From an uncultured Clostridia bacterium (GTDB lineage: Bacteria; Bacillota_I; Bacilli_A; RF39; UBA660), in the NCBI GenBank assembly GCA_946409545.1, contig CAMJWT010000009.1, positions 4,194-68,193 of the forward strand: DNA of 64,000 bases, read 5' to 3'. Position 1 is the first letter of the stretch, and each line of letters opens with the position of its first letter. Of the stretch, positions 10,372-35,232 are shown in pieces. The notes below the pieces were generated by a model, which had not been told where the DNA came from, searched no databases, and was given only the letters and a program-made list of their open reading frames with translations. The position numbers and the translations under genes were made by a program.

Positions 10372-10421
10372 AGCACTCCTACTATATTTATTTTAACTTT
10401 TTTTAGCAAATTAATAAAGAA

Positions 10422-10449
10422 AAAAGTAGACATTTTTTTGTCTACTTTT
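10422..10449 (-). terminator. terminator hairpin after the 1314-aa gene
   Basis: AAAAGTAGACA-TTTTTT-TGTCTACTTTT. Confidence 0.55.
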
Positions 10450-10460
10450 ACTTATTTTTA

Positions 10461-14405: not shown

Positions 14406-14486
14406 ACACTACTCCTATTTTAATTATATCATCGATTATAATATCTACAATTATTTTAAAAATTTTATTTATATGTTTACATAATA

Positions 14487-14511
14487 AAAAAGTGATAAAA
14501 TATCACTTTTT
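14487..14511 (-). terminator. terminator hairpin after the 735-aa gene
   Basis: AAAGTGATA-AAA-TATCACTTT followed by a T-run. Confidence 0.55.
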
Positions 14512-14538
14512 TTATTTATTAAGGTATTAATAATTTTA

Positions 14539-16746
14539 TCAATTATCTTCAATAATATCATCAGAAGATGTTGAAACTTCTTCTTTAACTGTTACATTAC
14601 AAGTATCTATTTTTCCATTATATGCTTTTACCGTTATAATAGCAGTTCCTTCACTAACACCTTTTACAATACCATTGGCATTAACTTTTGCAATACTAGT
14701 ATCACTACTTTCCCATGTTACATTTTGATTTGTTGCATTAAATGGATTAAAGGTTACATGTAATTCTTTTTTTTCACCAACTTTCAACAATAGCTCGTTG
14801 TTATCTAAAGATATACTATCTAGTTCTACAACTTTATTATTTCCACTTACTATAACTTCACAAGTTGCAGATAGTCCATTAACTGTTGAAGCTTTAATTG
14901 TAGTTTTTCCTACACCTATAGTTTCTACTACACCATCTGATACCGTTGCAACACTCGGATTAGAACTTTCCCATATAACTTTTTTATTTGTAGCATTATC
15001 TGGGTTTATTGTTGCTGTAATATAAATTCGATCATTAACTTCAGTATTAATTACTTGTTTATCTAATGTAATTTCTGAAACAGGAACTCTATTTTCTATA
15101 ACATTAATAGTACACAACGCCGTTTTATTATTATTTGTTTTTACAGTAATATTTGTTGTACCTACACTTAATGCTTTTACTAGACCATTATCAACAGTAG
15201 CAACATTAGGATTAGAACTAGTCCAAGTTACATTTTTATTAGTAGCGTTACTTGGAGTAACTGTTTTAACTAATACGAGTTCATCACCTACAGTAATATT
15301 AGCATTTTTCTTATCTAAACTAATACTTTGAACTTCTTGTTCACGAACTGTTACATTTATTTTTTTTGAAATACTTTTATATACACTTGTAACGATAACA
15401 TCCGTTTTACCGATTCCTTTTCCTACGATTAAACCATCTGATACTGTTGCAATAGATGAATCTTTACTATTCCATAATAAACTTGTATAAGTTGCATTAG
15501 ATGGAATAACATTAGCATTTATTTTATCAGTTCCACCAACAATAATATCTACATTATTTTTAGATAAATTAATATCTTTTTCTTCAATAATTCGAGATAC
15601 TTTATTAACTATTACTTTAGAAGTATCTTTATATCCACCATCAAGGGTTTCAACTGTTACTTTAGCTTCACCACTTTTTATAGCGATTATTCTATTTCCA
15701 TCTATTCTTATTATTTCACCATTATTTGTTGATATTTTAACACCTTGATTGGTAGCGTTTGATGGATTTATTTTATAAGTTAACTTTTTACTATCACCAA
15801 CATTCATTGTTATATTCTTATTCGTAATATTAATACCTTTAACTTTAACTATATCGCTAGTTACTTTAACTGTAATGAAATCTTCTATCCCATTAATCGT
15901 TGTAGCTAATATTTTAGTTGTTCCTTCTTTTATTCCTGTTACTACTCCTAAATCAGATACCATTGCAATATTACTATCCATACTTTCATATGTAATATCA
16001 CTATTAGCTCCTTCTGGAGAAATAATTGTTTCAATTTGATTACTACCACCAATACTTACAGTCATATTTTTAGGTTTTAATTCAAGTTTCGTTGGAACAT
16101 CTTCTTCTAATTTTTCATAAACATTTACTTCTACTTCTTGATATACACCAGATACTTTATCACTAACAACAACCAATGTTGTTCCACTATTAATTGCTTT
16201 GATATTACCATTACTATCAACTGTTGCTACTTTAGGATCTCCTGTCATATATTCTATTTCATGTAAAGCTGCTTCTTTTGGTAATATTTTATAATTAATT
16301 TTGTATTGATTACCAACTTGTAAATATACTCTTTTAGTACTTAAAATTATTTCTTCAATACGAATATCATTATCAGATACAATTACAAGACACTGAGCTT
16401 TAATATCTTTATATTTATCCAAATATGCAGTAATTGTTGCAACACCATTATTTTTAGCTTCTAAATATCCTGTTATTTCATTAACACTAACAATATTAGG
16501 TTTATCACTTTCAAAAATAATTTTTTTATTTTTCATATCACCTGGAAGAATCTTGGCATTTAATTGAAATGATTTAAACTTTTTTAATCTAATTTCACTT
16601 TGTGATAAAGATAAATCTTCTGGTTTCTTTTCAAAAGGATTACTTATTACTCCAAAAGACAATAATGAAAAACCTATGATAAATACTACGATAAATATCA
16701 TAAAATACACTGATATCTTTTTAACTAATACATTATCAAATTTCAT
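14539..16746 (-). CDS. surface-anchored Big_2 repeat protein (no catalytic C-terminal domain)
   Basis: 735 aa. The N-terminal signal-anchor plus first two domains are homologous to the 5734 and 10461 paralogs. About seven Big_2 units follow, and the protein ends in an acidic tail. Confidence 0.65.
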   Translation of the reverse strand: MKFDNVLVKKISVYFMIFIVVFIIGFSLLSFGVISNPFEKKPEDLSLSQSEIRLKKFKSFQLNAKILPGDMKNKKIIFESDKPNIVSVNEITGYLEAKNNGVATITAYLDKYKDIKAQCLVIVSDNDIRIEEIILSTKRVYLQVGNQYKINYKILPKEAALHEIEYMTGDPKVATVDSNGNIKAINSGTTLVVVSDKVSGVYQEVEVNVYEKLEEDVPTKLELKPKNMTVSIGGSNQIETIISPEGANSDITYESMDSNIAMVSDLGVVTGIKEGTTKILATTINGIEDFITVKVTSDIVKVKGINITNKNITMNVGDSKKLTYKINPSNATNQGVKISTNNGEIIRIDGNRIIAIKSGEAKVTVETLDGGYKDTSKVIVNKVSRIIEEKDINLSKNNVDIIVGGTDKINANVIPSNATYTSLLWNSKDSSIATVSDGLIVGKGIGKTDVIVTSVYKSISKKINVTVREQEVQSISLDKKNANITVGDELVLVKTVTPSNATNKNVTWTSSNPNVATVDNGLVKALSVGTTNITVKTNNNKTALCTINVIENRVPVSEITLDKQVINTEVNDRIYITATINPDNATNKKVIWESSNPSVATVSDGVVETIGVGKTTIKASTVNGLSATCEVIVSGNNKVVELDSISLDNNELLLKVGEKKELHVTFNPFNATNQNVTWESSDTSIAKVNANGIVKGVSEGTAIITVKAYNGKIDTCNVTVKEEVSTSSDDIIEDN

Positions 16747-16787
16747 AATTAACTCCTACATTTTTATTATAACATTTATACTTATTA

Positions 16788-16815
16788 AAAAGTGAACAAA
16801 TTATTGTTCACTTTT
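16788..16815 (-). terminator. terminator hairpin after the NlpC/P60 surface protein gene
   Basis: AAAAGTGAACAA-ATTA-TTGTTCACTTTT. Confidence 0.55.
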
Positions 16816-16816
16816 T

Positions 16817-18340
16817 TTACCATTTAATCCACATATTAGTTAGTTTTCCATCACCATTTGCATATATTACATTTCGATAATATGCATCTTGATGTTCAGG
16901 ATCAGTACAGTCACCATTACGACAATTTGTTGAAGGATTAGGAGGATTCTTTTTAGAAATTTTGTTTAAACCATTACTTAATGTATAAATATAATCATCA
17001 TCTATTCCGATAATTAATTCATCATGGCCAAAAGGAATACCTACAATATTTTTCTTATCACGATCATAAGAAAGTAAAACGTCACCTACTCTTATTTTAT
17101 CTAGATTACCTCTTACAGGCGTTGGACTATTAGAATAAGCTCTTCTAATGCCATTAGTATTAAATGGCCAATTCATAAATCCCGTACAATCCATACCATT
17201 TATATATCCATTTTTTCGACAACCCCAAGAGTTAGTTTTAGTTCCAAAATGTAATCCTGCCGTATAAATATTATTTCCACCAGTTCCTTGATAAGCAATA
17301 ACATATGGAATATTACCCATTAAGAATCTACCAGCTTCGACAACCCCTGCTCTAGTTCCTCTTCCTACTTTATTAATAATACTATTCAATTGATTATTTA
17401 GTTTATCATTTTCAGCATCACTTATTTTTCCACAATAACCTGATGAATATAATGGAGTTCCATTATTTGGTTTAAAATGATATGGCAATTTATCTGTTAT
17501 AGAACATTTAACAGTCTTCGTTCTTCCATCATCAAGAGTTAAAGTAACTTTTATATTAGTATATCCTCTTGTAGCATTCTTATAAGCATTTTTACCATCT
17601 ACTTCTTTACCATTTAAATCCCATCTATATTTTTTTACGACATCTAAATTGTCACCAGTTACTTTTGCTGATGTACCATCAGTATCTACTTTTCCACTAC
17701 ATTTGAAATTATAATTAATTGGTTTAACAACAACAGTGCATGTTGCATATTTGTTGTTATTAGCTTTAGCAATGATTGCAACTGTTCCTGCTTTAACACC
17801 TGTTATAACACCATTATCTACTGTAGCAATACTATTATCACCACTTATCCATTCAATACTTTTATCAGTGGCATCACTTGGATTAATCGTAGCTGTTAAA
17901 GTTTCTTTTGCTCCAACTTTAATTGAAAGTGATTCTTTATCTAAGATAACTTCACTTACTTCAATAATAGGTTTTTTTACAATAACTTCACATGTTGCTG
18001 TTTTACCATTATTTGATTTAGCAGTTATTATAGCATTACCTGCCGTTAACCCTGTAACATTTCCATTATCAACTGTAGCAATATTACTATCACTACTTTC
18101 CCAAGTAACAGTTTTATTAGTTGCATTAACCGGTAATATTGTTTCTCTAATAGTTGCACTGTCACCTTCTATTAATACAAGAGATATCGTATCTAGAGCT
18201 ATACTATTTACTTCAACAGTATTATCATCACTACCTGTATTATCACCAGTATTACTTGGAGTATTATCAAGGAATAATAATAGTACACATAAAGCTATTA
18301 AAACTATAAAGATAATTATCGCTATAGAATATTTCTTCAT
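16817..18340 (-). CDS. surface-anchored Big_2 protein with C-terminal NlpC/P60-family (papain-fold) peptidase domain
   Basis: 507 aa with an N-terminal TM and two Big_2 units. The C-terminus has the motifs GMDCTGF ... VGDVLLSY ... GHDELIIG, which is the canonical NlpC/P60 Cys-His arrangement. Confidence 0.62.
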   Translation of the reverse strand: MKKYSIAIIIFIVLIALCVLLLFLDNTPSNTGDNTGSDDNTVEVNSIALDTISLVLIEGDSATIRETILPVNATNKTVTWESSDSNIATVDNGNVTGLTAGNAIITAKSNNGKTATCEVIVKKPIIEVSEVILDKESLSIKVGAKETLTATINPSDATDKSIEWISGDNSIATVDNGVITGVKAGTVAIIAKANNNKYATCTVVVKPINYNFKCSGKVDTDGTSAKVTGDNLDVVKKYRWDLNGKEVDGKNAYKNATRGYTNIKVTLTLDDGRTKTVKCSITDKLPYHFKPNNGTPLYSSGYCGKISDAENDKLNNQLNSIINKVGRGTRAGVVEAGRFLMGNIPYVIAYQGTGGNNIYTAGLHFGTKTNSWGCRKNGYINGMDCTGFMNWPFNTNGIRRAYSNSPTPVRGNLDKIRVGDVLLSYDRDKKNIVGIPFGHDELIIGIDDDYIYTLSNGLNKISKKNPPNPSTNCRNGDCTDPEHQDAYYRNVIYANGDGKLTNMWIKW

Positions 18341-19307: not shown

Positions 19308-19709
19308 ATGGAAGATTGTATTTTTTGTAAAATTATTAAAGGAGATATCCCAAGTAAAAAAGTATATGAAGATGATTTAGTTTATTGTTTTCTAGATATT
19401 AATCCTCATACTGATGGTGATTGTTTAATTGTACCAAAGGAACATATTTTAGATTTTCACGATGCATCTGATGAATTATTAATTCACATTAATAATGTTA
19501 TTAAAGATTTAGAAATCAAATATCACTTAGCATTAAAAAGTGATGGATTAACAATTATTCATAATAGTGGTGTTGGACAAGAAGTAAAACATTTTCATAT
19601 TCACTTAATACCAAGATATGAATTAAATGATGTTGCTTTATCTGCAAAACGTGAATTAAAGAGTGTTGATGAAGTTTATGAAACAATAGAAAAAGAGTTT
19701 TTTAATTAA
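19308..19709 (+). CDS. HIT-family (histidine triad) nucleotide hydrolase/transferase
   Basis: The histidine triad motif HFHIHLIP is present. 133 aa. It lies 8 nt after the galU-like gene with its own GGAGG RBS. Confidence 0.8.
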   Translation: MEDCIFCKIIKGDIPSKKVYEDDLVYCFLDINPHTDGDCLIVPKEHILDFHDASDELLIHINNVIKDLEIKYHLALKSDGLTIIHNSGVGQEVKHFHIHLIPRYELNDVALSAKRELKSVDEVYETIEKEFFN

Positions 19710-19717
19710 AACTCTTT
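19692..19717. terminator. bidirectional terminator between HIT gene (+) and 19719 gene (-)
   Basis: AAAGAGTTTT-TTAATT-AAAACTCTTT with flanking A- and T-runs. Confidence 0.55.
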
Positions 19718-19718
19718 T

Positions 19719-20486
19719 TTATTTTACTTTATGAAATTCTCTTAAATAATAATTATTATCAACTTTTTGAAAAACATATTGATACTTTTTAACGTTTTTA
19801 AAATCATCTAAATGTTCTTTAAAATATTTTTGATACATTTTTTCAAGTTCATCCATATCATCACTAGATGAAACAATATTATTAGTTATATCTTTATCAT
19901 TAATACTATATCCATCAATTGGACTTCCTAATAAGAATAAGACATCAATGGTATATAAATCTTTTTCTTTTTTATATGAAGTAATATAGTAATCAATATA
20001 ACCACTACCATAATACCCATGACCAGGATGATTATCATTATAAGTAAACTTTTTGGTATCTTTGTTGTAATAAACTAATACTTCATTATCTACTTTACAA
20101 ATAATATTTTTATATTCTTTAGGAACAAAGCCATAAGCATGGCTAAAGTAATCATCAAACTTACTCTTATCTATTTCCCATTTTTTAGAATCTTCAAAAT
20201 GGTTGATATCACTATCATCATTTTTAGATATATAGTTAAAAGCAAGATATAGAATACCATTCGATAGTTTATTACTAAACTTAACATTATCATATTCATA
20301 TGATAAGGCATCAAGGCCATATTCATTGATAACATTTATCAAGAATTTTTTATTATTTTCTTCTGTTTCATTAATAACATTTTCGGTATCAGCTTTAATC
20401 TTTTTATCATAGATATAATAACAAGATAAGCACAATACTGTTAATGCTATAATAAATATAATTGTATTTTTAACTTTTGATTTCAT
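19719..20486 (-). CDS. hypothetical signal-anchored / lipoprotein-like protein
   Basis: 255 aa with an N-terminal hydrophobic segment IIFIIALTVLCLSC followed by Cys. It is Tyr/Asp/Lys-rich with no recognisable domain. Confidence 0.4.
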   Translation of the reverse strand: MKSKVKNTIIFIIALTVLCLSCYYIYDKKIKADTENVINETEENNKKFLINVINEYGLDALSYEYDNVKFSNKLSNGILYLAFNYISKNDDSDINHFEDSKKWEIDKSKFDDYFSHAYGFVPKEYKNIICKVDNEVLVYYNKDTKKFTYNDNHPGHGYYGSGYIDYYITSYKKEKDLYTIDVLFLLGSPIDGYSINDKDITNNIVSSSDDMDELEKMYQKYFKEHLDDFKNVKKYQYVFQKVDNNYYLREFHKVK

Positions 20487-20498: not shown

Positions 20499-21680
20499 TT
20501 ATTTTCTTTTTTTTCTTTTATTTACTAGAAGAATTGTTATAAAAACGGTTAAAGAGATTAAGATACCTACTCCAACACAAATTAAAATTAATCCTTCATT
20601 TGATTGAACTTTATTATCATCAACATTGTCTTTTTTCGGATTATCAGAATCCGGTTCTTTTTCTTTTATTGTATGATCAATAATACTACCATCTTGATCA
20701 GTTTCAACTATAAATGGATCATCATTCCGTTCAATAACCCATCCTTTAAGTGTAGGAATATAGTAGATATTCTCAGGAATAACTCCACAATATTTAACTT
20801 CATAATCTTTATTTGCTTCAATCGTTCCAATAGATTCAGATGATATATCACTATCATTAAACTCAACGGTTCTATATATTTTAGCAACTTTCTTAGCTTT
20901 AATTTTATAATTATCACAATTATGAGCAAATGAATCAAATTTACTACTTATTGGCAAAAATCCTGATATGCCATTATATTTTACATAATAATAATTAGAT
21001 GATTCTCCACCTTTATCAGTAGATAACCAATAATTAGTAATCTCCGTATTCGAAGGAATATAACCTAGTATATTACTATCTTTAAAATTACCATCAGATG
21101 TTTTATAGATAGGTGCATTATTAATTGTAACAATCGTAATATCTTCATTATCTACTGGAGCCATTTCAAGAACAACTCTATCTTTATAACGACTAATATA
21201 ACCTTTAATGCCCTTATATGATACATATAACCAATAATGATTATACTCATATTCTGGTTTTAATTTAACACCTTTAGGAATAGTACCAACTTTATTAAAA
21301 ATTGTTGCTGGCCCAGAATATACTGTAATATTATCAAGCATTAAAGCTTGACCATAAACTTTATTTTTTTCTTCTTCATCAATTTTAAAGTCTTTAGTTT
21401 TAACTATTACATCTCTTGCATTAACATGACATGCGTCATATTCATCGTTAATTGTAACTAAATAAAATGTTTCCTCTTGAATATCTTGTCTAGCGTAATA
21501 TGTTTCACCATATGGTAACAATTCTTTATGGTTATAATCATTATCTAAACACATTGCACCTTCAACATTTGATATCTCAATTTGAATTTCAGGAAAAGTA
21601 GGAGGGCCAGTATCAGCTTTAACATTTAATACTAATAATAAACTTAAAAACAATAATATATTAAATATTTTTTTCATCAA
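20499..21680 (-). CDS. type I membrane protein with SH3b-like domains (paralog 1 of 3)
   Basis: 393 aa with a signal peptide MKKIFNILLFLSLLLVLNVKA and SH3b-like segments (VYSGPATIFNKVGTIPKGVKLKPEYEYNHYWLYVSYKGIKGYIS). A C-terminal TM is followed by a KRKKRK stop-transfer sequence. Confidence 0.5.
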   Translation of the reverse strand: MMKKIFNILLFLSLLLVLNVKADTGPPTFPEIQIEISNVEGAMCLDNDYNHKELLPYGETYYARQDIQEETFYLVTINDEYDACHVNARDVIVKTKDFKIDEEEKNKVYGQALMLDNITVYSGPATIFNKVGTIPKGVKLKPEYEYNHYWLYVSYKGIKGYISRYKDRVVLEMAPVDNEDITIVTINNAPIYKTSDGNFKDSNILGYIPSNTEITNYWLSTDKGGESSNYYYVKYNGISGFLPISSKFDSFAHNCDNYKIKAKKVAKIYRTVEFNDSDISSESIGTIEANKDYEVKYCGVIPENIYYIPTLKGWVIERNDDPFIVETDQDGSIIDHTIKEKEPDSDNPKKDNVDDNKVQSNEGLILICVGVGILISLTVFITILLVNKRKKRK

Positions 21681-21692
21681 CTGACCTCCTTT

Positions 21693-23159
21693 CTATTCTA
21701 AATTGGAATTATCATTATTATTTTGAATAGGTTCTACTTCTTCTTTTTTCTTTTTATTAACTAACTTAATAACAACAAGTATTGTTACTGCTATTAAGAT
21801 ACCTGCACCAACACAAATCATAATTAATTCTTCATTTGTTAATCCTTTTTTATCATCTGGTGTTGGTTCTTCCTTTGGAGTTGGTGGTTGTACATCACCA
21901 GGTTTTTCTGCTTTTACAATTTTAAAAGTATAAGTATGTGTTCCATCTTCATCCTTAGCTTTTAATGTAACAACACTATTATTTTTTAAATCTTCATTAT
22001 TTAATACATCTACTTCAACTTCATTTGGAGTAACAACAAATTCTAGTTTTGTTTCTTCTTCACTTAACTCAACAGTATAAGAATACTGTGTTTTTGAAAA
22101 ATCAATACTATGTCCTTTTATTTCTATTTTTTCTAAAGAAATTTCTTCTTTAGTATGATCAAATACTTCTCCTTTAGAATCTGTTTCGATGATATATCTA
22201 TCCTCATGATCTTCAGTGATCCAACCATTTTTTGATGTAATATAATACGCATTCCATCCTTGACCACCACCACAATATTTGACATCATAATCTTTATTTG
22301 AGTCTATTGTTCCAAGCTCCTTGGAAATAAGTTTACCATTATCATCGTAATCAAGTGATTCATATACTTTAACAGATTTTTTAGCTTTTATTTTTGTACC
22401 ATCACACTTTTCTGCAAAAGAATAATGATTATACACAAAACCATATTTACCATTATATTCAATGTAATTATTTCGACTATAATCTGTACCCCATTCAACT
22501 TTTAATTCTTTATTAGCTGGTATTGTATCAATTATTTTGGAATCTTTAGTAGTACTATAATCGAATTCATGATCAAAAATAGGTGTTTTATCATATGTTA
22601 CAACTATTTCTGGTTCTATATGAACAACAATGGCACCACCTTCACTACTTATATATCCTTTTATGCCATTATATTCAACATAATACCAATAATCACCTAA
22701 TTTGTAACTAGATTCTAATTTAGAATCTTTAGGAATAGTTCCTATTTCTTTATAGAAATTTTTAGATGGACCAGAATAAATTTTCATATCTTTAAGAGCC
22801 CATAATGCAAAAGGTCCCTCTTCTTTATCATCTTCTGCTGGTTTAAAGTTATCTTGTTTTACAACTACATCTGTCTTTTTAACATAACAAGATAAAACCT
22901 CTTTTTCATTAAAAGATAATTTATAATAATCTTTTATAAAGTTATCATCATATATATCAGTATTTTCAATATAACCGTAAGCAAGTTCACCATATTTAAG
23001 AGTTCTATTAACTTTAGATTCACTATCATAACATTTAGCTCCATCAGGATTAGAAACTTCCATTTCTAATTGAGGCAATACTGGTGGTCCCATATCAGCT
23101 TTAACATTTAAAACTAATAATAAACTTAAAAACAATAATATATTAAATATTTTTTTCAT
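21693..23159 (-). CDS. type I membrane protein with SH3b-like domains and cadherin-like beta-sandwich domain (paralog 2)
   Basis: 488 aa with the same signal peptide and SH3b-like motifs (DYWYYVEYNGIKGYISS). The cadherin-like pattern LEKIEIKGHSIDFSKTQYSYTVEL...THTYTFKIV is followed by a Pro-rich linker, a TM and KKKK. Confidence 0.5.
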   Translation of the reverse strand: MKKIFNILLFLSLLLVLNVKADMGPPVLPQLEMEVSNPDGAKCYDSESKVNRTLKYGELAYGYIENTDIYDDNFIKDYYKLSFNEKEVLSCYVKKTDVVVKQDNFKPAEDDKEEGPFALWALKDMKIYSGPSKNFYKEIGTIPKDSKLESSYKLGDYWYYVEYNGIKGYISSEGGAIVVHIEPEIVVTYDKTPIFDHEFDYSTTKDSKIIDTIPANKELKVEWGTDYSRNNYIEYNGKYGFVYNHYSFAEKCDGTKIKAKKSVKVYESLDYDDNGKLISKELGTIDSNKDYDVKYCGGGQGWNAYYITSKNGWITEDHEDRYIIETDSKGEVFDHTKEEISLEKIEIKGHSIDFSKTQYSYTVELSEEETKLEFVVTPNEVEVDVLNNEDLKNNSVVTLKAKDEDGTHTYTFKIVKAEKPGDVQPPTPKEEPTPDDKKGLTNEELIMICVGAGILIAVTILVVIKLVNKKKKEEVEPIQNNNDNSNLE

Positions 23160-23170
23160 CTACTGACCTC

Positions 23171-24631
23171 CTATTCTAAATTGGAATTATCATTATTATT
23201 TTGAATAGGTTCTACTTCACTATTTTTCTTTTTATTAACTAACTTAATAATAACAAGTATTGTTACTGCTATTAAGATACCTGCTCCAACACAAATCATA
23301 ATTAATTCTTCATTTGTTAATCCTTTTTTATCATCTGGTGTTGGTTCTGGTTTTGGAGTTGGTGGTTGTACATCACCTGGTTTTTCTGCTTTTACAATTT
23401 TAAAAGTATAAGTATGTGTACCATCTTCATCCTTAACTTTTAAGGTAACAACACTATTATTTTTTAAATCTTCATTATTTAATACTTTTACGTCAACCTC
23501 ATCTGGAGTAACAACAAACTCTAGTTTTGTTTCTTCTTCAGCTAACTCAACAGTGTATTCTGTTTTGTTCTTGGCAAATCCGATATCATGTCCTTTTATT
23601 TCAAGTTTTTCCAAAACAACTGATCCCTCATATGGATCTTCACCTTTAGAGTTAGTATATTTTACGAAGTCAACATGAGGAAGATAATTTGATTCAGATA
23701 CCCTATTATAAATCCATCCTTTTAATTCTGTTATATAATAGCCTTCTTCATCATAAAAATCATAACAATAAGATACAGCATATTCTTTTCCTTTGGATAC
23801 TGTTCCAATCTTTGCTCTTTTACTACCTAGATTATCATATACATCTAAATCACGTTTAGCTACAATTTTACCACCAGAACAACCTTCTGCAAATCCATCC
23901 ATTTTTCCAATTAATCCTGATGTTCCATTATAATCAATATAATAATATCTATCATAATCCGTAGACCAATTAACTTCTATCAAAGTATTTGCTGGTATTT
24001 CACCAATGACATTTATTTTTTCGTTGTTTTCATCATTTTGACGTTCAGAGCCAATTTTTTGAATATTTATGGCATACACTGTAAAATATTTTTGTCCTTG
24101 AATTTCGTTGTTGACAATAGCAGTTTTTTCACTTGATATATATCCACTTACACCATCATATGTTACATAATACCAAAAATCTCCCATACGATATTGCGTT
24201 TTAAGTTTTGTTCCTTTTGGTATTACCTTATTTAATTTTTCAAAATAAGTTGATGGTCCTTTGTACATCTCAACACCTTTTGATTCAATTACCATCAAAT
24301 CAATTTCTTTTTCTAATTTATCTTCATTAGATAATTCATATTTTTGATTAAAAAAGTTTAAATCTTCAAGATGAATATAACAATATGCCTCTTCATTAGT
24401 TAAATCATAGTGATATGAATATTCACCTGCACCATAATTTTCTACTTCAATGACTGTTCCTTTAGCAAGTACTCTTTCTACTTCTTTAAAGTCCATATCT
24501 TTATAACATTTTGTGTTATCATTCTTAACTTCACCTTTTAATTTAGGGAAAGCAGGTGGTCCCATATCTGCTTTAACATTTAAAACTAATAATAAACTTA
24601 ATAATAATAAACTATTTAATATCTTTCTCAT
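23171..24631 (-). CDS. type I membrane protein with SH3b-like domains and cadherin-like beta-sandwich domain (paralog 3)
   Basis: 486 aa. The C-terminal about 150 aa are about 95% identical to paralog 2 at nucleotide level. SH3b-like motif: DFWYYVTYDGVSGYISS. Confidence 0.5.
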   Translation of the reverse strand: MRKILNSLLLLSLLLVLNVKADMGPPAFPKLKGEVKNDNTKCYKDMDFKEVERVLAKGTVIEVENYGAGEYSYHYDLTNEEAYCYIHLEDLNFFNQKYELSNEDKLEKEIDLMVIESKGVEMYKGPSTYFEKLNKVIPKGTKLKTQYRMGDFWYYVTYDGVSGYISSEKTAIVNNEIQGQKYFTVYAINIQKIGSERQNDENNEKINVIGEIPANTLIEVNWSTDYDRYYYIDYNGTSGLIGKMDGFAEGCSGGKIVAKRDLDVYDNLGSKRAKIGTVSKGKEYAVSYCYDFYDEEGYYITELKGWIYNRVSESNYLPHVDFVKYTNSKGEDPYEGSVVLEKLEIKGHDIGFAKNKTEYTVELAEEETKLEFVVTPDEVDVKVLNNEDLKNNSVVTLKVKDEDGTHTYTFKIVKAEKPGDVQPPTPKPEPTPDDKKGLTNEELIMICVGAGILIAVTILVIIKLVNKKKNSEVEPIQNNNDNSNLE

Positions 24632-24808: not shown

Positions 24809-25165
24809 TTAATAAACAATTTCATTTATTAATAACCCTAATAAATATGAACTAGCATTTAATATTAGTGATAATAAAAATCCATTTATTTTTCTTCTCT
24901 TTAAATATTTATGATATATTAATCCTTCCACAAATAATGTTAATATTTCTAAAATTAGTAAACTTATATTTCGAGTTTTTAATCCATGATAATAATTAAA
25001 ATATACTGGTATACTAGATACTATTGGATTTGTTAAACAATTTGCAAGAAAAATGTTTAATAAATCTTTTTTTCGATAACCAATAATAATAGCAATACCG
25101 CACTCAATAATAAGTGTTGAAACTAAGCATATCACCATTACTTTAGGAAACTCAGCTATTGTCAT
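24809..25165 (-). CDS. hypothetical membrane protein (3-4 TM)
   Basis: 118 aa and hydrophobic. It sits in an operon-like arrangement with the 24612 and 25282 ORFs. Confidence 0.35.
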   Translation of the reverse strand: MTIAEFPKVMVICLVSTLIIECGIAIIIGYRKKDLLNIFLANCLTNPIVSSIPVYFNYYHGLKTRNISLLILEILTLFVEGLIYHKYLKRRKINGFLLSLILNASSYLLGLLINEIVY

Positions 25166-25281
25166 TTTTTAATTCCTTACATACTAGATAAATAGTAATA
25201 ATAATTATTAGTAAAATAATACCAACGCCTACGTAGAATAATAATTCTTTATTTTCTAAAAAATAATTTTGAAAATACCAC

Positions 25282-26343
25282 TTAACCATTACTACTACCT
25301 TCTTTCTTTAAGACATAAGATAATGCTAATGAACATGCAATAGATAATATAGCAATCATACCAATATTTACATACATACTAGGTATCTTTATAAAGAAGA
25401 TTGGTGCTGTTCCTAAAAATAAACCTATTGTTGTAAGTCCAAAAGCAAGTCCTGGCGATTTCTTTAATTCCGATACTAAGATGGCAAGCGTAATCGACAT
25501 TGTCATCGAAAAGAACATAACACCTATTAGTGATACAATCATTAATTTATCACCGATTGCTAAGAAAGGTATTGCAAGTAAGGTACTCCATATACCAACT
25601 TTTCTTATACCATACAAATCAGATAAAATTCCGCCTAAAGCTTTTCCTAAACCCATAATACAGAACAAATAAACCGTTTGTAATGTTGATTTGTTCCATG
25701 ATGTTGGAATTCCATATCCCATATAACCTCTTATTATTACAACAAGAACTGCAATGATAATAACAATTCCAGGGGAAATACTTTTTTTAACATAATCAAA
25801 TTTATTACAATTACTATTTTTTGCTGTATATGAATCAGCCAATAATATAAATGGTATCATCGTAAGAATAATTGGTAATAAATAGAATGCTTTTAAACTA
25901 GTTTTAGCAAGTAATCGACCTGTTATTACACCAAAGGATCCACCAGATACAAAGATAGCACTATGAGATAGTTTTCCTTTAGAATTACGAAGAGTATTCT
26001 CAGCACCTCCAACATGTAAACAACAATTACCAATACATATTATAAATAAAGGAATAAACTTGGATAGGTCAAAGATACTATATAAAAGAATTCCTATAAA
26101 TAGTAATCCAACACCTATCATACTTACATTTACTTTTGGATGTTTATCATTAAATCTACCAATAAGACTTTGTGGTACAAAAGCAAAAGCATCATATAAA
26201 AATGGTACTAACCACGCAAGTGGTGAGTTCGTTATTCTTGATAAGTGAAAGAAACATACAACTTCGACAATAAAATGAATATAAAAATATAAATATCCAC
26301 AAGCAATATTATCTTCACACAAAACACTTTTTAATTTTTTCAC
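25282..26343 (-). CDS. polytopic membrane protein, possibly MFS-type transporter
   Basis: 353 aa with about 10 predicted TMs. The loop LIGRFNDKHPKV resembles MFS motif A (GxLaDrxGrk). Confidence 0.4.
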   Translation of the reverse strand: MKKLKSVLCEDNIACGYLYFYIHFIVEVVCFFHLSRITNSPLAWLVPFLYDAFAFVPQSLIGRFNDKHPKVNVSMIGVGLLFIGILLYSIFDLSKFIPLFIICIGNCCLHVGGAENTLRNSKGKLSHSAIFVSGGSFGVITGRLLAKTSLKAFYLLPIILTMIPFILLADSYTAKNSNCNKFDYVKKSISPGIVIIIAVLVVIIRGYMGYGIPTSWNKSTLQTVYLFCIMGLGKALGGILSDLYGIRKVGIWSTLLAIPFLAIGDKLMIVSLIGVMFFSMTMSITLAILVSELKKSPGLAFGLTTIGLFLGTAPIFFIKIPSMYVNIGMIAILSIACSLALSYVLKKEGSSNG

Positions 26344-26378: not shown

Positions 26379-28193
26379 TTATTTACATTCACTATTAGCA
26401 ATATTTTTTAATTTTTTTGCAATTGTTTTATCAGTTACATATAAATTTGTTGTAACTTTTGTTGCATCTTCATTATAAACTTTAACATACATACAAAGAG
26501 CTGATAAATAAGCTCCATTAATATTTTGATGATTATTATCAGGAACATATACTTCAATTTTATTATTTAAAGCTTTTTTAAAAGCATTACCATCATGAAT
26601 AACATAAGTCTTGATTCCGTAATCTTTATTAATTTTACTAGCAACTTTTTCAGTATTACTATTCATTGCTTTTAAATCTTTTTCAAAATCAGAAGATTTT
26701 AAAGGCCAACTTGTTCTAAAATAAAGACGACCTTTATAATTCTTACCACCAATTAATTCTACGAATTTTTTGGTATCATCATAATATTTATTAAAATCAG
26801 TTCCTGCTGCTATAGCTGTTTTTTCTTGAAGAATAATAACATCAAAATTTCTAGCAAGAATATATTCTTTAAATGGTGATACTGTTCTTGTTGCAAAATA
26901 AGATCCATTTTTAGCCGTTATCGTTACATTTTTATGAACACCGATAAAAATTGATTTATCTTTGGCTTTAGTTTCAATTTTAGAACTTGAATTACTTAAA
27001 TATTTACCTTTATAAGCAATATCGACAAAGTTAAAAGATGGTCTTTTATCTTTATCATTTGTTCTAAATGTTTTGCTATTTCCAACAATTAAAATTGTTA
27101 ATGGATTTACTTTAATTTTAGCAGATGCTTTTTTACCATTATTACTTGTCGCTGTAATTGTTGCTTCACCAATTTTAAGTCCTGTTACTTTACCTTCTTT
27201 ATCAACTTTAGCAATACTTGTATCAGAACTTGTCCATGTAACAGTTTTATTACTAGCATTAGAAGGTGTTATTGTTGCAACAAGTTTAATTGATCTTTTC
27301 GTTTTAACATTAACACTTGTCTTATTTAAACTAATACCTGTTACAGGTACATCTTTATTTTTATCCCAATGAGCGTAAATTATTACATTACTATTAATTA
27401 TGGTATTTGAACTTACTTTTGTTCCACCATTCTTCTCTGTATACCATCCACTAAAGGTATAACCACTTCTTGTTGGTGTTGGTAATGTTCCATACTTATC
27501 TCCTCTATTTAATGTTTTACTAGTAGGACTTACACTACCACCATTAGCATTATAAGTTAAAGTATATTTAGTAGTTACTTGATTTTTAGAAACACTAACA
27601 AAACAAGTGGCATAAAGATTATTTGATGTTTTAACAGTTATAGTTGCACTTCCTTCACCAACTGCTTTTACTAAACCATTATTAACAGTAGCAACTTTAT
27701 TATTACTTGTTTCCCATTTGATATTAGTGTTGGCATCAGATGGTTCTATCTTATAAGATAATGTTTCACTACCCCCAACCTTTAAGTTAATACTTGTTTT
27801 ATTTAAACTAATATTTTGTGGATAAATGATTGTTTGTTCAGTATAAACTGTAACATTACAAGTATCATTTATATCTTCCTTACCTTCGATATATGCTGTA
27901 ACAGTAGCGTATCCATTATTCTTTCCTGTGATATAACCATTATCATTAACTAGTACTATATTTTCATCACTACTTTTAAATTTAACGTTTTTAACATTTT
28001 CGTTTAATTCTAAAGTATAACTAGAACCTTTTTCTATGGTAATACTTTTTTCTTTAAAAGATATTTTATCTACTGTATTATTACCACATCCGACTAAAAA
28101 AAATAATGATAGTATTCCGATAATTCCAATCAATAAAGACTTTTTCATACTCTCACCTATTTTAATTATATAATTAAAAGAAATTATAAACAA
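26379..28193 (-). CDS. lipoprotein with Big_2 domains, a Listeria-Bacteroides repeat and a C-terminal SGNH/GDSL-like hydrolase domain
   Basis: 604 aa. The lipobox LFFLVGC and three Big_2 units are present, plus the repeat YTLTYNANGGSVSPTSKTL...GWYTEKNGGTKV...IYAHW. C-terminal SGNH blocks are ILIVGNS (block I), DVIILQE and DNNHQN (DxxH block V). Confidence 0.55.
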   Translation of the reverse strand: MFIISFNYIIKIGESMKKSLLIGIIGILSLFFLVGCGNNTVDKISFKEKSITIEKGSSYTLELNENVKNVKFKSSDENIVLVNDNGYITGKNNGYATVTAYIEGKEDINDTCNVTVYTEQTIIYPQNISLNKTSINLKVGGSETLSYKIEPSDANTNIKWETSNNKVATVNNGLVKAVGEGSATITVKTSNNLYATCFVSVSKNQVTTKYTLTYNANGGSVSPTSKTLNRGDKYGTLPTPTRSGYTFSGWYTEKNGGTKVSSNTIINSNVIIYAHWDKNKDVPVTGISLNKTSVNVKTKRSIKLVATITPSNASNKTVTWTSSDTSIAKVDKEGKVTGLKIGEATITATSNNGKKASAKIKVNPLTILIVGNSKTFRTNDKDKRPSFNFVDIAYKGKYLSNSSSKIETKAKDKSIFIGVHKNVTITAKNGSYFATRTVSPFKEYILARNFDVIILQEKTAIAAGTDFNKYYDDTKKFVELIGGKNYKGRLYFRTSWPLKSSDFEKDLKAMNSNTEKVASKINKDYGIKTYVIHDGNAFKKALNNKIEVYVPDNNHQNINGAYLSALCMYVKVYNEDATKVTTNLYVTDKTIAKKLKNIANSECK

Positions 28194-28199: not shown

Positions 28200-28223
28200 A
28201 ACTAGTTAATTACTTAACTAGTT
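28200..28223 (-). terminator. terminator of the alpha (rpoA-rplQ) operon
   Basis: AACTAGTTAA-TTAC-TTAACTAGTT perfect inverted repeat overlaps the rplQ stop. An A-run lies on the plus strand, giving a U-run on the transcript. Confidence 0.6.
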
Positions 28224-28554
28224 CAATTATTGACATTAATGCACCGTCTCCACGACGTTCATCTACTTTAAGAATTCTTGTATATCCACCATCACGTTTT
28301 TCATAACGTTTTGCTAGATCTTCAAATATTTTCTTAACTACTTCAGAATCATTATGAAGGAAGGCAAGTGCTGATCTACGTGAAACTAAATCTCCACGTT
28401 TACCTAATGTAATCATTTTATCAACTGATTTACGAACTTCTTTAGCTCTTGTATCAGTAGTTGTAATTCTTTCATTCATGATAACTTGTTTAGTTAAAGT
28501 AGCTAACATACTTCTTCTATGTTTGTTATCACGACCTAATTTTCTATAAGCCAT
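28210..28554 (-). CDS. rplQ: 50S ribosomal protein L17
   Basis: [20 protein letters not shown]... is a typical L17. It is the last gene of the alpha operon. Confidence 0.9.
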
Positions 28555-28565
28555 TATTTTCCCTC

Positions 28566-29543
28566 CTAATCATTTTCTTTTAAATCAAGACCCATTTCTT
28601 TAATCTTATCAAGAACTTCTTTTAATGATTTCTTTCCAAGATTTCTGATCTTCATTATTTCGCTTTCATCTTTATTAACTAAATCTTGTAAAGTATGAAT
28701 ATTAGCTCTCTTTAAGCAATTATATGCTCTTACAGAGAAATCTAAATCATCGATACTAGTCTCTAATGCTTTAGTCTTAGAATCTTCTGTTTTTTCAATC
28801 ATTGTTACTGTATCTTTAGCAGAATGTTCTAGTACTTCGAAATGTTTCTTAAGTACTTTAGCAGCATCTCCTAAAGCTTCATCTGGTTTAATTGCTCCAT
28901 TAGTCCAAATATTTAATACTAATTTATCATAGTTTTCATTTTGTCCAACACGAGCATTTAATACTTCGTAAGATACTCTTTCAATTGGTGAATAAAGTGA
29001 ATCAATTGCAATAACACCAATCTTATTAGTATTTAATAATTTCTTATTTTCTTCACTTCTTACATATCCACGTCCATTAGATACAGTCATTTCCATGTAT
29101 AAGTGTCCACCTTTAGTTACAGTGGCAATTTCAAGATTAGGGTTAACGATTTCTAAATCACCATCATGAATGATATCAGATGCTAATACTTTTCTTTCAC
29201 CTTCATCACAAGTAACATCAATATGAATTACTTTATCTTCAGTAGAATTATTTTTAAGTACAACACTCTTTAAATTAAGAATAATTGTTGTAACATCTTC
29301 ATAAACTCCATCTAAAGTTTGGAATTCATGTTGAACTCCTTCGATCTTTACACTTGTAATAGCAGTTCCTGGTAAACTTGAAAGTAATACTCTTCTTAGA
29401 GCGTTACCAATAGTATTACCGAAACCTCTTTCTAATGGTTCAATTTCAAATTTTCCATAGAAATTATTTTCAATGTATTCAGCTACATTGTAATTAGGTT
29501 TTTCAAAGTCAATTCTTTGAGATACTTTTTCTTCTTCTTTCAT
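28566..29543 (-). CDS. rpoA: DNA-directed RNA polymerase subunit alpha
   Basis: IDFEKPNY...[18 protein letters not shown] and the C-terminal CTD helix-hairpin-helix are present. The start is set at the internal ATG (MKEEEK) with AAGGAG 5 nt upstream. The longer ORF overlaps rpsK. Confidence 0.9.
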
Positions 29544-29556
29544 GAAAACTCCTTTT

Positions 29557-29940
29557 CTATCCACGTGGGCGTTTTGGTGGACGACATCCATTATGTGGAA
29601 TTGGTGTTACATCATCAATTGATGTAATTTCTAAACCAGCAGTTTGTAATGATCTAATAGCAGTTTCTCTTCCTGGTCCTAATCCTTTAACATATACTTC
29701 AACCTTACGCATTCCAAGGTCATAAGCTTTCTTTCCAGCAGCATCACTTGATACACCTGCAGCAAATGGAGTAGATTTTTTACTTCCTTTGAAGCCATTA
29801 GCTCCAGCGCTTGACCAAGCAATAGCATTACCTTCTTTATCTGAAATAGTTACGATTGTGTTATTGAAAGTTGCATGAATATGAGCAATACCTTCAGGAA
29901 CATTCTTCTTAACTTTTCTTTTTCTTTGTTTGTAAGCCAT
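29557..29940 (-). CDS. rpsK: 30S ribosomal protein S11
   Basis: [16 protein letters not shown](S)[11 protein letters not shown] is the canonical S11. Confidence 0.92.
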
Positions 29941-29958
29941 TTTAATTTCCTCCTTTAA

Positions 29959-30333
29959 CTATTTTGTTGCAGTTTTCTTGTTAGCAACTGTTTTACCTCT
30001 ACCCTTACGAGTATGAGCATTTCTATTTGTTCTTTGTCCACGAACTGGTAGACCTTTTTTATGACGAACACCTTGATATGAATTTATTTCCATTTTAGTC
30101 TTAATATTCATATTAACTTCACGACGTAAATCACCTTCAACTAAATGTTCATTAATTTGATCACGAAGTGCATTTTGTTCATCAACAGTTAATTCTCCTG
30201 CTTTTTTAGTTGGATCAACTTTTGCTTTTTCACAAATAGTCTTAGCAAGATTTCTACCAATACCATAGATATAAGTTAAAGATATACAAATATGTTTATC
30301 ATTAGGTATATCTACACCTTTAATACGTGCCAT
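29959..30333 (-). CDS. rpsM: 30S ribosomal protein S13
   Basis: [26 protein letters not shown] is the canonical S13. Confidence 0.92.
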
Positions 30334-30346
30334 AATTCCTCCTCAA

Positions 30347-30460
30347 TTACCCTTGTGTTTGTTTATGTTTAGGGTTTTCACAAATTACCATAACTTTACC
30401 TTTACGTTTGATTACTTTGCATTTTGCACAAATAGGTTTTACAGATGGTTTAACTTTCAT
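30347..30460 (-). CDS. rpmJ: 50S ribosomal protein L36
   Basis: Hand-translated 38-aa ORF, below the ORF-track cutoff: [37 protein letters not shown]. It is a Zn-ribbon L36 sitting between infA and rpsM, as expected. Confidence 0.8.
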
Positions 30461-30473
30461 TATAATCCCTCCA

Positions 30474-30686
30474 TTACTTTCTATATATTATACGCCCACG
30501 TGTTAAATCGTATGGTGATAATTCGATTGTGACATTATCGCCTTCTACGATACGAATGGAATACATTCGCATTTTACCAGAAACGTAGGCTTCGATGATA
30601 TGTCCATTAGACAATTCAACTTTAAATTTACCTGGTAAAACTTCTAATACTTTTCCTTCAACAACTATCGTATCATTCTTCGCCAT
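30474..30686 (-). CDS. infA: translation initiation factor IF-1
   Basis: 70 aa. The S1-like fold sequence [21 protein letters not shown] is present. Confidence 0.9.
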
Positions 30687-31434
30687 TTAATTCTCCTGTC
30701 AGGATTTCATATCCATCCTTTGTTACTACTACGGTATGTTCAAAATGCGCACTTGATGAATTATCAACTGTTTCAATTGTCCATTCATCATCTAATATAC
30801 ATATTTCTCTACTACCATAAGTTAGCATTGGTTCAACTGCAATAACCATTCCTTCTTTAAGAACAGGTCCCGTATGAGGAAGACCATAGTTTGGAACATC
30901 TGGTTCTTCATGAACATCCGTTCCTACACCATGACCAACAAGTTCACGGACAACACCTAAATTATGCGCTTCCGCATAAGTTTGAATAGCATGACCGATA
31001 TCACCAATTCTTGCTCCTGGTTTTATTACACTTAAACCTTCAAATAAACTTTTTTCTGTATGTTCCATTAAATATTTACGTTCTTCTGATATTTCTCCTA
31101 CAGCATATGTCCAAGCTGAGTCTCCATGGTAACCCTTGTAGCAAGCTCCAATATCTAGTGTTATGATATCACCATTACGAAGTTTTCTATCACTTGGTAT
31201 TCCATGAACTACTTCTTGATTAATACTTGTACAAATACTAGCTGGATAATCATTGTAACCTTTAAAGGAAGGAGTACAACCTTTAGAACGAATAAATTCT
31301 TCTCCTAAACGATCAATCTCTTTAGTAGTAATTCCTTCCTTTATAAATGGTCGTAAATATTTATGAGTTTGATAGACAATATTACCAGCAACACGCAAAA
31401 GTTCAATTTCACGTTTACTTTTAATACTAATCAT
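30673..31434 (-). CDS. map: methionine aminopeptidase type I
   Basis: 253 aa. The metal ligands D..D..H..E..E sit in a conserved context (ITLDIGA...HGVG...EPM). Confidence 0.9.
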
Positions 31435-32077
31435 TTATTACACCCTCTATCGCTTTAATTGTTTCAGTAGGATCTACTGAATCGATACTAACTAGCGCAT
31501 TATTCTTTTTATAATATTCAACTAATGGATAAGTTTTATCAATAAATTCTTGATAGCGAACAGCAAATGATTCACTATTGTCATCACTTCTTTGATAAAG
31601 CTTTCCTCCACATTTATCGCACTTACCATCAACTTTTGGTGTATTAACACCAGTTAAAACATTGTAAGTTGCGCCACAGTTTTCGCATAAACGACGGCCT
31701 GTGATACGTTTTTCTAAGATATCTTTTGGAGTATCTAAATAAATGACAACTCCAAGATCTCTATTAACTTCTTTTAATATCTTGTCGTATTCTTCTGCTT
31801 GATTAAGATTTCTTGGAAAACCATCTAAGATATAACCATTATCTAAGTCTGGCATTCTAAGTCTTTCCCTTACAGCATCATATACAATATCATCAGAAAT
31901 AAGTTTGCCACCTTCTAAAAGTGTTGCAATTTTATTTCCAAGTTCTGTACCGCTTTTAGCAATACCTCTTAAAATATCACCTGTAGAAATATGAATGTAT
32001 CCATACTTTTCAATTAATAGCTCACTCATTGTGCCTTTACCAGCAGCAGGTGGCGCTATAAAAATGATATTTTTCAT
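31427..32077 (-). CDS. adk: adenylate kinase (Zn-lid type)
   Basis: The P-loop APPAAGKGT and the lid cysteines C..C...C..C are present. Confidence 0.92.
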   Translation of the reverse strand: MKNIIFIAPPAAGKGTMSELLIEKYGYIHISTGDILRGIAKSGTELGNKIATLLEGGKLISDDIVYDAVRERLRMPDLDNGYILDGFPRNLNQAEEYDKILKEVNRDLGVVIYLDTPKDILEKRITGRRLCENCGATYNVLTGVNTPKVDGKCDKCGGKLYQRSDDNSESFAVRYQEFIDKTYPLVEYYKKNNALVSIDSVDPTETIKAIEGVIND

Positions 32078-33345: not shown

Positions 33346-33346
33346 C

Positions 33347-33790
33347 TTAGATCACCTCTAATGTACTTCCTGACTTTTCTATTTTATTAACTGCTTCTTT
33401 ACTAAATTTATTAGCTTTGATTGTTAATTTCTTTTCTAAAGTACCATTTCCTAGTACTTTTACTCCATCTAATTGATTTTTAAGTAATCCAGCTTCGTGT
33501 AAAATTTCTGGAGTTACTACTGCTCCGTCATCAAACTTATTTAAATCAGATACGTTGATAACTGCATATTTAATTTTAAATTGGGCATTAGAGAAACCTC
33601 TTTTAGGTAATCTTCTATATAATGGTAATTGTCCACCTTCGAAAGTAGCTGGAATAGATACACCACTACGAGCTTTTTGACCTTTTTCTCCTTTACCACT
33701 TGTTTTTCCTAAACCAGATCCAGGTCCACGTCCAACACGACGTCTTTCTGTTCTAGCTCCATTATTTTGCATTAATTCATTTAATTTCAT
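33347..33790 (-). CDS. rplO: 50S ribosomal protein L15
   Basis: [18 protein letters not shown] is the canonical L15. It directly abuts rpsE with no L30 gene between them. Confidence 0.9.
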
Positions 33791-34299: not shown

Positions 34300-34308
34300 A
34301 AGTGCCTC

Positions 34309-34662: not shown

Positions 34663-34680
34663 CTTAATTCTCCTTATCTA

Positions 34681-35220: not shown

Positions 35221-35232
35221 GTTAAACTCCCC

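Follow-up and report, generated by a model that had tools for sequence, protein, structure and literature searches.

The window analysed here, a stretch of 64,000 nucleotides from an uncultured Clostridia bacterium (contig CAMJWT010000009.1), carries three tandem genes for membrane-anchored proteins with SH3b domains, and the question it raises is what these proteins are for and with which partners they work. The trio turns out to be part of a recurrent gene cassette, together with a major facilitator superfamily (MFS)-type membrane protein, a microprotein with a single transmembrane (TM) helix and a four-helix membrane protein. Based on this association and on terminal hallmarks shared with the small proteins of remote modules, we give roughly even chances to the reading that the trio are wall-tethered accessory or receptor subunits of a complex made by the MFS-type protein, the microprotein and the 4-TM protein.

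The SH3b trio and its conserved ends

A sequence-only reading of this DNA had reported three tandem genes for proteins of 393, 488 and 486 residues, and their coordinates are matched exactly by open reading frames (ORFs) on the minus strand, here referred to as paralogs A, B and C.

20499-21680, minus strand: SH3b paralog A, 393 residues in the ORF listing; no cadherin-like module; the tail stops just past the basic cluster
21693-23159, minus strand: SH3b paralog B, 488 residues; covered by the ORF listing, Pfam, AlphaFold2 (AF2), hhalign and Foldseek
23097-23159, minus strand: signal peptide of paralog B
22848-23078, 22635-22838, 22422-22634 and 22200-22421, minus strand: the four SH3b-like repeats of paralog B
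21900-22148, minus strand: cadherin-like module of paralog B
21753-21836, minus strand: TM helix of paralog B
23171-24631, minus strand: SH3b paralog C, 486 residues; signal peptide, A-D-MGPP, four SH3b-like repeats, cadherin-like module, Pro-rich linker, TM helix, and a Lys-rich and acidic tail

The listed ORF of paralog A starts with TTG; the ATG one codon further on (21677) has the better ribosome-binding site spacing and yields 392 residues, which is probably the true length and is also that of homolog P0013. The gaps within the trio measure 11-12 nucleotides, with a GGAGG in each. Compared to the 393-residue protein, identity is 46% for the 488-residue and 38% for the 486-residue protein.

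All three are paralogous type I membrane proteins composed of a signal peptide, SH3_3, a C-terminal TM helix and a Lys cluster. The signal peptide that the earlier reading took to be common to them was indeed found in each, together with the motif MKKIFNILLFLSLLLVLNVKA/D.GPP (...LLLVLNVKA/D.GPP, the slash separating the two parts), and the TM helix ends in LVNK(K/R)K in all cases. In the 46 family members, with identity down to 22%, V-K-A-D and P26 (the Pro four residues past the Asp) are invariant, and so is N468 at the end of the TM helix. Concerning the C-terminal end described as a Pro-rich linker, a TM helix and a poly-Lys stretch, the helix and the Lys cluster hold for all three proteins, but the linker of the 393-residue paralog is not really Pro-rich.

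The SH3b ectodomain

In Pfam, SH3_3 (PF08239) scores 40.3, 42.1 and 38.3 bits in the three proteins, with E-values of 1e-9 to 1e-10 and a gathering score of 27, which confirms the assignment of SH3b domains made from the letters alone. Their number had to be corrected, from two to four per protein. Profile-profile comparison of sub-alignments with hhalign shows that residues 28-104, 108-175, 176-246 and 247-320 of the 488-residue protein are SH3b-like and mutually homologous, with probabilities of 97-98% among repeats 2-4 and of 73-95% for repeat 1 against the others. Since the four segments are mutually homologous, the supposed Cys-containing N-terminal module is instead a divergent SH3b repeat. 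When the repeats are taken in isolation, the second scores 38.3 bits and the third 16.6 bits with SH3_3, and the first and fourth give no match.

The AF2 model of the 488-residue protein, built with 46 family sequences, has a predicted local distance difference test (pLDDT) score of 83.6. In it, successive all-beta domains lead into a Pro-rich linker, which is disordered, and then into a TM helix (442-469), in keeping with the type I topology first proposed. Four beta domains are seen in this model. Nearly all of the chain can be assigned to one of the four repeats, the cadherin-like module, the linker or the TM helix, with 321-337 as an unassigned stretch.

The best Foldseek matches in the PDB are a model of the multi-SH3b protein YrvJ of B. 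subtilis, the tandem-SH3b NlpC1/2 of T. vaginalis and a Clostridium phage endolysin, and the best viral matches are endolysins bearing SH3b wall-binding modules. The SH3b fold binds peptidoglycan in other proteins. Searches of Pfam and NCBIfam for a catalytic domain (amidase, NlpC/P60, M23, GH25 and others) gave no match in the three proteins, and an identity as autolysins or endolysins was rejected because such a domain is missing.

The cadherin-like module

The cadherin-like domain that had been assigned to the two longer proteins stays below the threshold of PF12733 in the window: the gathering score is 24.2 bits, and both paralogs reach 13.3 bits and the module taken alone 19.2 bits (E 0.0017). 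Support for the assignment comes from other sources. In family member P0010, 36% identical to the 488-residue protein, the equivalent module passes PF12733 with 26.7 bits; the AF2 model of the 488-residue protein forms a beta-sandwich with strands at 344-416; and a hidden Markov model (HMM) of the window module matches the membrane-proximal domain of PF12733 proteins (domain scores 25.5 bits; domain E about 1e-10). These proteins are cadherin-like type I membrane proteins of 622-658 residues with 3-4 domains, encoded directly after the SH3b gene(s) in four related loci:

L001, 4644-6512: cadherin-like protein gene
L002, 11139-13115: cadherin-like protein gene
L003, 12568-14445: cadherin-like protein gene
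L008, 7431-9308: cadherin-like protein gene

Taken together, P0010, the neighbouring proteins and the predicted fold support that the module of about 80 residues is homologous to bona fide PF12733 members and adopts a beta-sandwich fold. In both kinds of protein, a TM helix and an acidic tail come after this membrane-proximal domain. They differ in that the window lineage has the module, which is under the Pfam cut-off, fused to two SH3b paralogs instead of residing in a separate protein of 3-4 domains. The long paralogs probably captured it from a neighbouring gene of this type.

A conserved gene cassette

Upstream of the trio, on the same strand, the following genes complete the cassette.

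25282-26343, minus strand: m353, a divergent, short MFS-type membrane protein of 353 residues; first gene of the cassette
25152-25289, minus strand: s45, a single-TM microprotein of 45 residues, MVKWYFQNYFLENKELLFYVGVGIILLIIIITIYLVCKELKNDNS; overlaps the stop of m353 and the start of m118
24809-25165, minus strand: m118, a four-helix membrane protein of 118 residues
24612-24797, minus strand: s61, a single-pass mini-protein of 61 residues, MRFL-D-VAAP ... TM ... VVVNKNKN, with its own GGAGG ribosome-binding site

The SH3b family is small. A total of 45 homologs was found, the sole source name among them being 'hypothetical protein' (P0043, from a Bacilli metagenome-assembled genome, MAG). The 11 loci in species-representative genomes (two of which match the cadherin-like module alone) all belong to rumen and gut MAGs of uncultured Erysipelotrichaceae, 'Tenericutes' or Bacilli. 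With no NCBIfam model, no description found in the literature searched and no functional name for any of the 45 homologs, the family appears to be undescribed, as first proposed.

In about 17 of 17 distinct loci with a true relative, the SH3b gene or genes adjoin homologs of m353 and m118, and the flanking genes differ. The usual arrangement is m353, s45, m118 and then the SH3b gene(s), all on one strand with gaps of 11-120 nucleotides, as derived from loci L001-L009, L012-L018 and L099-L101 together with the window. In three of them (L006, L007 and L009) the MFS gene and m118 flank the SH3b gene, which is hard to reconcile with accidental adjacency. The earlier suggestion that neighbouring membrane proteins may belong to the same locus hence applies to the 353- and 118-residue proteins (called downstream in that reading, by position number), adjacent in every related locus, but not in general to the 255-residue protein at the other end, present in close relatives alone. 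No sensor or signalling gene conserved near the cassette was seen in the compared loci.

The microprotein s45 was absent from the list of the earlier reading and falls below the length cut-off of the ORF listing used here. In 12 of 12 loci checked, the apparent spacer of about 120 nucleotides after the 353-residue gene encodes a homologous small single-TM ORF of about 40-50 residues, and counterparts of 42-48 residues were called independently as genes in L016, L099 and L100. The other small protein, s61, is conserved in two close relatives of the window, L015 and L016 (83% identical), at 61-70 residues and just before the first SH3b gene; a similar mini-protein occurs in L009. Judged from its motif and topology, s61 looks like a version of the SH3b proteins that lacks the ectodomain.

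These observations bear on a first alternative, in line with the earlier suggestion of a cell-cell or wall-sensing adhesin set, namely that the SH3b proteins are independent wall-binding proteins or adhesins, which would attach by themselves to the wall of their own cell, to other cells or to host material, and whose adjacency to the membrane proteins would result from shared transcription or from an old insertion site. SH3b and cadherin-like domains are typical modules of surface proteins, the region is rich in other surface proteins of the Big_2 type, and both the very fast evolution of the ectodomains and the variation in copy number resemble variable adhesins or antigens. It does not fit, however, with adjacency across unrelated flanks, with an SH3b gene placed inside the core pair, with an ectodomain-less s61 in the same operon, or with mini-proteins of remote modules that carry the same terminal hallmarks (see below), and we regard it as distinctly improbable.

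Assignment of the MFS-type protein rests on its relatives. MFS_1 matches 20 of 22 m353 homologs with a best E of 2.6e-8, and the remote relative P0240 reaches 34.3 bits against the gathering score of 33.4 of MFS_1 (PF07690). MFS motif A (G-x-x-x-D-R/K-x-G-R-R/K, in a loop between TM helices) appears in 60 m353 relatives as GKALGGxLADRFGARR-type (GGxLxDxxGxRK), and the N-terminal half of m353 itself has GRFNDKHPK at this motif. Neither an NCBIfam model nor a PDB sequence match was obtained for m353.

The 118-residue protein is predicted by AF2 as a four-helix bundle (pLDDT 91.3). Alignments show a set of invariant intramembrane polar residues, E21, N42, T45-N46-P47, E73, E80, N103 and S106. It has no match in Pfam, NCBIfam or PDB sequences, and Foldseek gave none for its model in the PDB either (best E 2.1). 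Membership in the PACE/BTP family (PF05232) was considered and rejected, as one of ten remote homologs matches weakly (18 bits versus a cut-off of 25.6, E 0.003) and the other nine do not match; no internal repeat was detected in m118 either (hhalign probability 2%). The weakly matching homolog is:

L049, 1996-2340: m118 homolog with a weak match to BTP, the repeat of two TM helices found in PACE-family efflux proteins

Searches of the cassette proteins in NCBIfam, PADLOC and PDB sequences returned nothing useful. Among seven cassette proteins (all but the 486-residue paralog), PADLOC defence models gave no match except a weak one of s61 to PD-T4-6 (12 bits, E 0.021), over the TM region. With Rfam, neither a riboswitch nor a leader was found ahead of the MFS gene in the window or in 15 remote loci, and a promoter scan was uninformative in the AT-rich window, with 99 sites versus 96 expected.

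Remote modules and the shared hallmark

Beyond the SH3b family, the MFS-type protein has at least 1543 homologs, for which 'hypothetical protein' is the sole source name in the best 120. A full-library profile search at E<=1e-10 returned 1170 clusters at 50% identity, nearly all of 330-370 residues. We scanned 80 metagenome loci, with 26-67% GC, by way of MFS relatives about 30% identical to m353. A homolog of m118 is adjacent to the remote MFS gene in 53 of the 80 loci, many of the other contigs being truncated, and almost all of the remote loci have a single-pass protein of 55-130 residues beside or between the two genes. The leaders of these mini-proteins are either a signal peptide ending in x-A-D-[VILM]-x-x-P or a short basic stretch of the type MKKxxKxxNNxxF-D-xxxP, after which come a TM helix and a K/R cluster.

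Combining all sets, a mini-protein of the pattern phi-D-phi-x-x-P ... TM ... K/R is present in 62 of 68 loci that hold both core genes. Of 1241 neighbouring ORFs on the same strand, 81 fit the pattern, versus 4 of 3035 other ORFs of the same loci. The mini-protein s61 fits this pattern of a third component. Since the trio and the remote mini-proteins share the leader motif, the TM helix and the basic cluster, we read the trio as a lineage-specific, ectodomain-bearing form of the small subunit. For the same reason, a subunit or a cargo of the module accounts for the SH3b proteins better than a stand-alone adhesin.

Other occupants of the single-pass position were found in the following loci.

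L084, 1139-1615: protein with PG_binding_1
L090, 1039-1851: Bacteroidota-style protein with Por_Secre_tail
L047, 2379-3421: three tandem A-D mini-proteins

The protein of L084 starts with ALADLLPYP, lies between the MFS gene and m118, and matches PG_binding_1 with an E of 2.8e-14; by this domain match it is a second, unrelated peptidoglycan-binding fold in the single-pass slot.

Further conserved partners were looked for and rejected: ftsEX occurs in L012 alone, the NlpC/P60-like gene in close relatives alone, and the neighbours of remote modules are mutually unrelated. A c-di-GMP-I riboswitch lies beside one remote module (L029, 4381-4463, minus strand); it is on the strand opposite the MFS gene and thus does not lead into it.

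A motif that is invariant in such different proteins could also mark cargo. According to this second alternative, A-D-phi-x-x-P would be recognised or cleaved by m118, possibly with the MFS-like protein, as part of a dedicated sorting or processing system with clients of 55 to 500 residues, which it would process, modify or position in the manner of sortase or exosortase cargo. Consistent with it, an invariant short motif with a TM helix and a basic cluster occurs on varied passengers (none, PG_binding_1, Por_Secre_tail, or four SH3b repeats with or without the cadherin-like module), whose genes always neighbour those of the same polytopic proteins; disorder is predicted for the motif region, yet it is the most conserved part of the family; and m118 has the invariant intrahelical residues E21, E73, E80 and N42/N46. 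On the other hand, m118 resembles no known peptidase or sortase in family or fold, nor does it conserve a catalytic set of His, Cys or Ser-Lys. In the SH3b proteins, about 420 residues separate the motif from the TM helix, which departs from a classical tripartite C-terminal signal. Moreover, most genomes have one client per module rather than many dispersed clients, which suits a subunit better than a cargo family. We consider the cargo reading improbable, although it is the main rival of the accessory-subunit reading. A classical C-terminal sorting signal was rejected, because the conserved motif is N-terminal with none before the TM helix, as many as about 40 residues can follow the basic cluster, and m118 has no sortase or exosortase match.

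Divergence and recombination

The SH3b ectodomains evolve far faster than their cassette partners. In the comparison of the window with its close relative L016, housekeeping neighbours are 92-99% identical, m353 96%, m118 95% and s45 93%; the Big_2 surface proteins show 73-75%, paralog A, the only trio member with a clear ortholog in L016, 76%, and the other SH3b copies at best 46-50%. In L001-L009, identity to the window proteins is 55-74% for m353 and 48-60% for m118, but only 23-32% for the SH3b proteins.

Divergence is not evenly distributed along the chain. Between the window paralogs, the signal peptide and motif are 77-87% identical and the SH3b repeats 17-49%, and linker, TM helix and tail of paralogs B and C are 94% identical, their last ~300 nucleotides having 91-99% DNA identity. 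Copy number has changed by recombination: there is one SH3b gene in L018, two in L015 and L016, and three in the window, and in L015 the long gene has a body like that of the 486-residue copy joined to the tail variant of the 488-residue copy. Unequal crossover inside the conserved 3' block would yield both the hybrid gene and the change in copy number.

Hypervariable ectodomains are also what would be expected from a third alternative, in which the trio regulate peptidoglycan hydrolases or act as scaffolds for them without being catalytic, the SH3b array recruiting or restraining such an enzyme, or else serve as decoys or exposed phage receptors under diversifying selection driven by phages or the host. 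An NlpC/P60-like Big_2 protein is encoded nearby (16817-18340), ftsE and ftsX (L012, 6348-7938) lie immediately upstream of the cassette of L012, and the SH3b arrays are similar to binding modules found in endolysins and autolysins. Neither this putative hydrolase nor ftsEX is kept beside the cassette in other loci, though, and the PADLOC search described above found no defence family apart from the weak match of s61. As neither idea accounts for the conserved MFS and 4-TM partners, we find this explanation very doubtful.

Proposed role of the trio

In the accessory-subunit reading, each SH3b protein would dock on the module through two ends, the A-D-M-G-P-P stretch left after removal of the signal peptide and the TM helix with its LVNKKK end, and the SH3b array in between would reach the peptidoglycan of the organism itself. 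The proteins could thereby serve to position or stabilise the transporter or to gate it; they could also capture, on its behalf, a ligand derived from the wall. Besides the cassette and the shared hallmark, this reading is favoured by the SH3b array itself, by the PG_binding_1 protein of L084, by the evidence that the organism makes peptidoglycan (see below) and by paralogs that keep their ends while their repeats vary.

Several points weigh against this interpretation. The link between the trio and the mini-proteins is drawn from short motifs, topology and gene position, their homology being not detectable, and the third-component pattern was composed after the sequences had been seen. An SH3-family HMM finds no member beside the remote MFS homologs in the 80 loci, and the case of L084 is a single locus, with a protein that has no TM helix at its C-terminus. 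In the 488-residue model, pLDDT is low over the motif stretch, and the motif could merely be a preferred signal-peptidase context. The window protein m353 itself scores 13.8 bits with MFS_1, below the gathering score of 33.4. Substrate-binding or accessory subunits usually evolve together with their transporter, and here m353 and m118 show 95-96% identity between the window and L016, but the SH3b copies 39-76%. SH3b domains may also have ligands other than peptidoglycan.

A broader reading is tentative, and we hold it rather unlikely: the MFS-type protein, the microprotein, the 4-TM protein and the phi-D-phi-x-x-P single-pass protein may together form a widespread modular membrane machine, so far unrecognised, with a plug-in single-pass position. 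Depending on the lineage, this slot would hold nothing, PG_binding_1, or four SH3b repeats with or without a cadherin-like module, and the trio would be the most elaborate form known. Such a machine might be a transporter coupled mechanically or chemically to the wall, or else a new system for protein processing or sorting in which the Glu-rich 4-TM protein recognises the N-terminal Asp motif.

Surroundings of the cassette

Two further features lie at the 3' end of the transcription unit.

19719-20486, minus strand: signal-anchored protein of 255 residues, last gene of the transcription unit; no Pfam family
19680-19725, minus strand: AT-rich perfect hairpin with a T-run, after the 255-residue gene and overlapping the end of a convergent HIT-family gene; RNAfold -11.2 kcal/mol

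The 255-residue protein follows the SH3b genes in L015-L018 (88% identical in L016, 45% in L018) and is absent from L001-L014. The hairpin is possibly a bidirectional terminator that also serves the convergent HIT gene; having too few G-C pairs, it was not picked up by the scan for consensus terminators.

The cassette is located directly downstream of a ribosomal-protein/secY/adk/rpoA/rplQ cluster (28210-41803), with one Big_2 gene in between, and the same holds in L016. Secreted or anchored proteins with up to 11 Big_2 repeats each are encoded around it (5734-18340, 26379-28193 and 46162-50343, all on the minus strand), some of which also carry Flg_new, NAGPA phosphodiester-glycosidase or NlpC/P60-like domains. 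The window further has a class A penicillin-binding protein (Transgly and Transpeptidase; 59058-61991, plus strand) and a LysM protein (44140-45216, minus strand). These two, along with the NlpC/P60-like protein, show that the organism makes peptidoglycan. A peptidoglycan wall is thus seen in a low-GC (about 27%) organism, although NCBI labels some of the related MAGs 'Tenericutes'.

Relation to known systems

SH3b wall-binding arrays and accessory subunits of MFS proteins are both known kinds, and it is their combination, together with the underlying module, that appears to be undescribed in the libraries and papers searched. No description of the SH3b family, of the cassette or of a module made of MFS, 4-TM and Asp-motif single-pass proteins was found in the libraries and the full-text literature that were searched; the 4-TM component has no family name, and these searches brought up no structure of the module either. 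Should the proposed association hold, it would give the first defined subunit composition for a module present in more than 1000 sequence clusters, in loci of 26-67% GC, and a bacterial MFS protein with exchangeable single-pass accessory subunits. To our knowledge, most examples of such an arrangement have so far come from eukaryotes and mycobacteria. A link to peptidoglycan, provided by the SH3b and PG_binding_1 versions, is the sole functional handle so far and makes the system experimentally approachable. With putative docking ends that are conserved, hypervariable ectodomains and a copy number driven by recombination in a gut or rumen commensal, the trio also bears on surface variation and on phage or host pressure.

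Concerning sorting, the systems sortase/LPXTG, exosortase/PEP-CTERM and rhombosortase/GlyGly-CTERM place a motif, a TM helix and a basic cluster on varied passengers beside a polytopic protein. The trio and the mini-proteins also have a motif, a TM helix, a basic cluster and a conserved polytopic neighbour. In the trio, however, the motif is N-terminal with the passenger between motif and TM helix, the tails often run 10-40 residues past the basic cluster, and m118 has no similarity to known sorting enzymes.

The tripartite secondary transporters TRAP DctPQM and TTT TctABC combine a large polytopic subunit with a small one of four TM helices and with a ligand-binding protein outside the cytoplasm, and this overall three-part logic matches the module of the window. 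No homology to them was detected in Pfam, the large subunit is here MFS-type, and the partner is an SH3b array rather than a Venus-flytrap protein.

With tandem-SH3b autolysins and endolysins, i.e. YrvJ, Acp, Psm of phage phiSM101 and NlpC1/2, the trio shares the repeated SH3b beta-barrels, and its top Foldseek matches are of this kind; Acp of C. perfringens has ten SH3b domains (PMC8470621). In place of a catalytic domain, the trio has a TM anchor with a cytoplasmic tail, the A-D-MGPP start and the MFS/4-TM cassette.

MFS transporters with a membrane-anchored accessory protein are exemplified by MCT1 with basigin or embigin. Further cases are MFSD1-GLMP, whose accessory protein is extracytoplasmic and membrane-anchored (PMC11252000), and Rv1410-LprG, an MFS protein with an accessory protein from a conserved operon of mycobacteria (PMC6519032; bioRxiv 10.1101/2023.01.25.525346). 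The module of the window has no sequence relationship with these pairs, adds a 4-TM protein and a microprotein to what would be the complex, and carries a fast-evolving ectodomain of a wall-binding fold. The likeness lies in the logic, in that an MFS protein is paired with a single-pass or lipid-anchored protein that presents a beta-rich domain outward.

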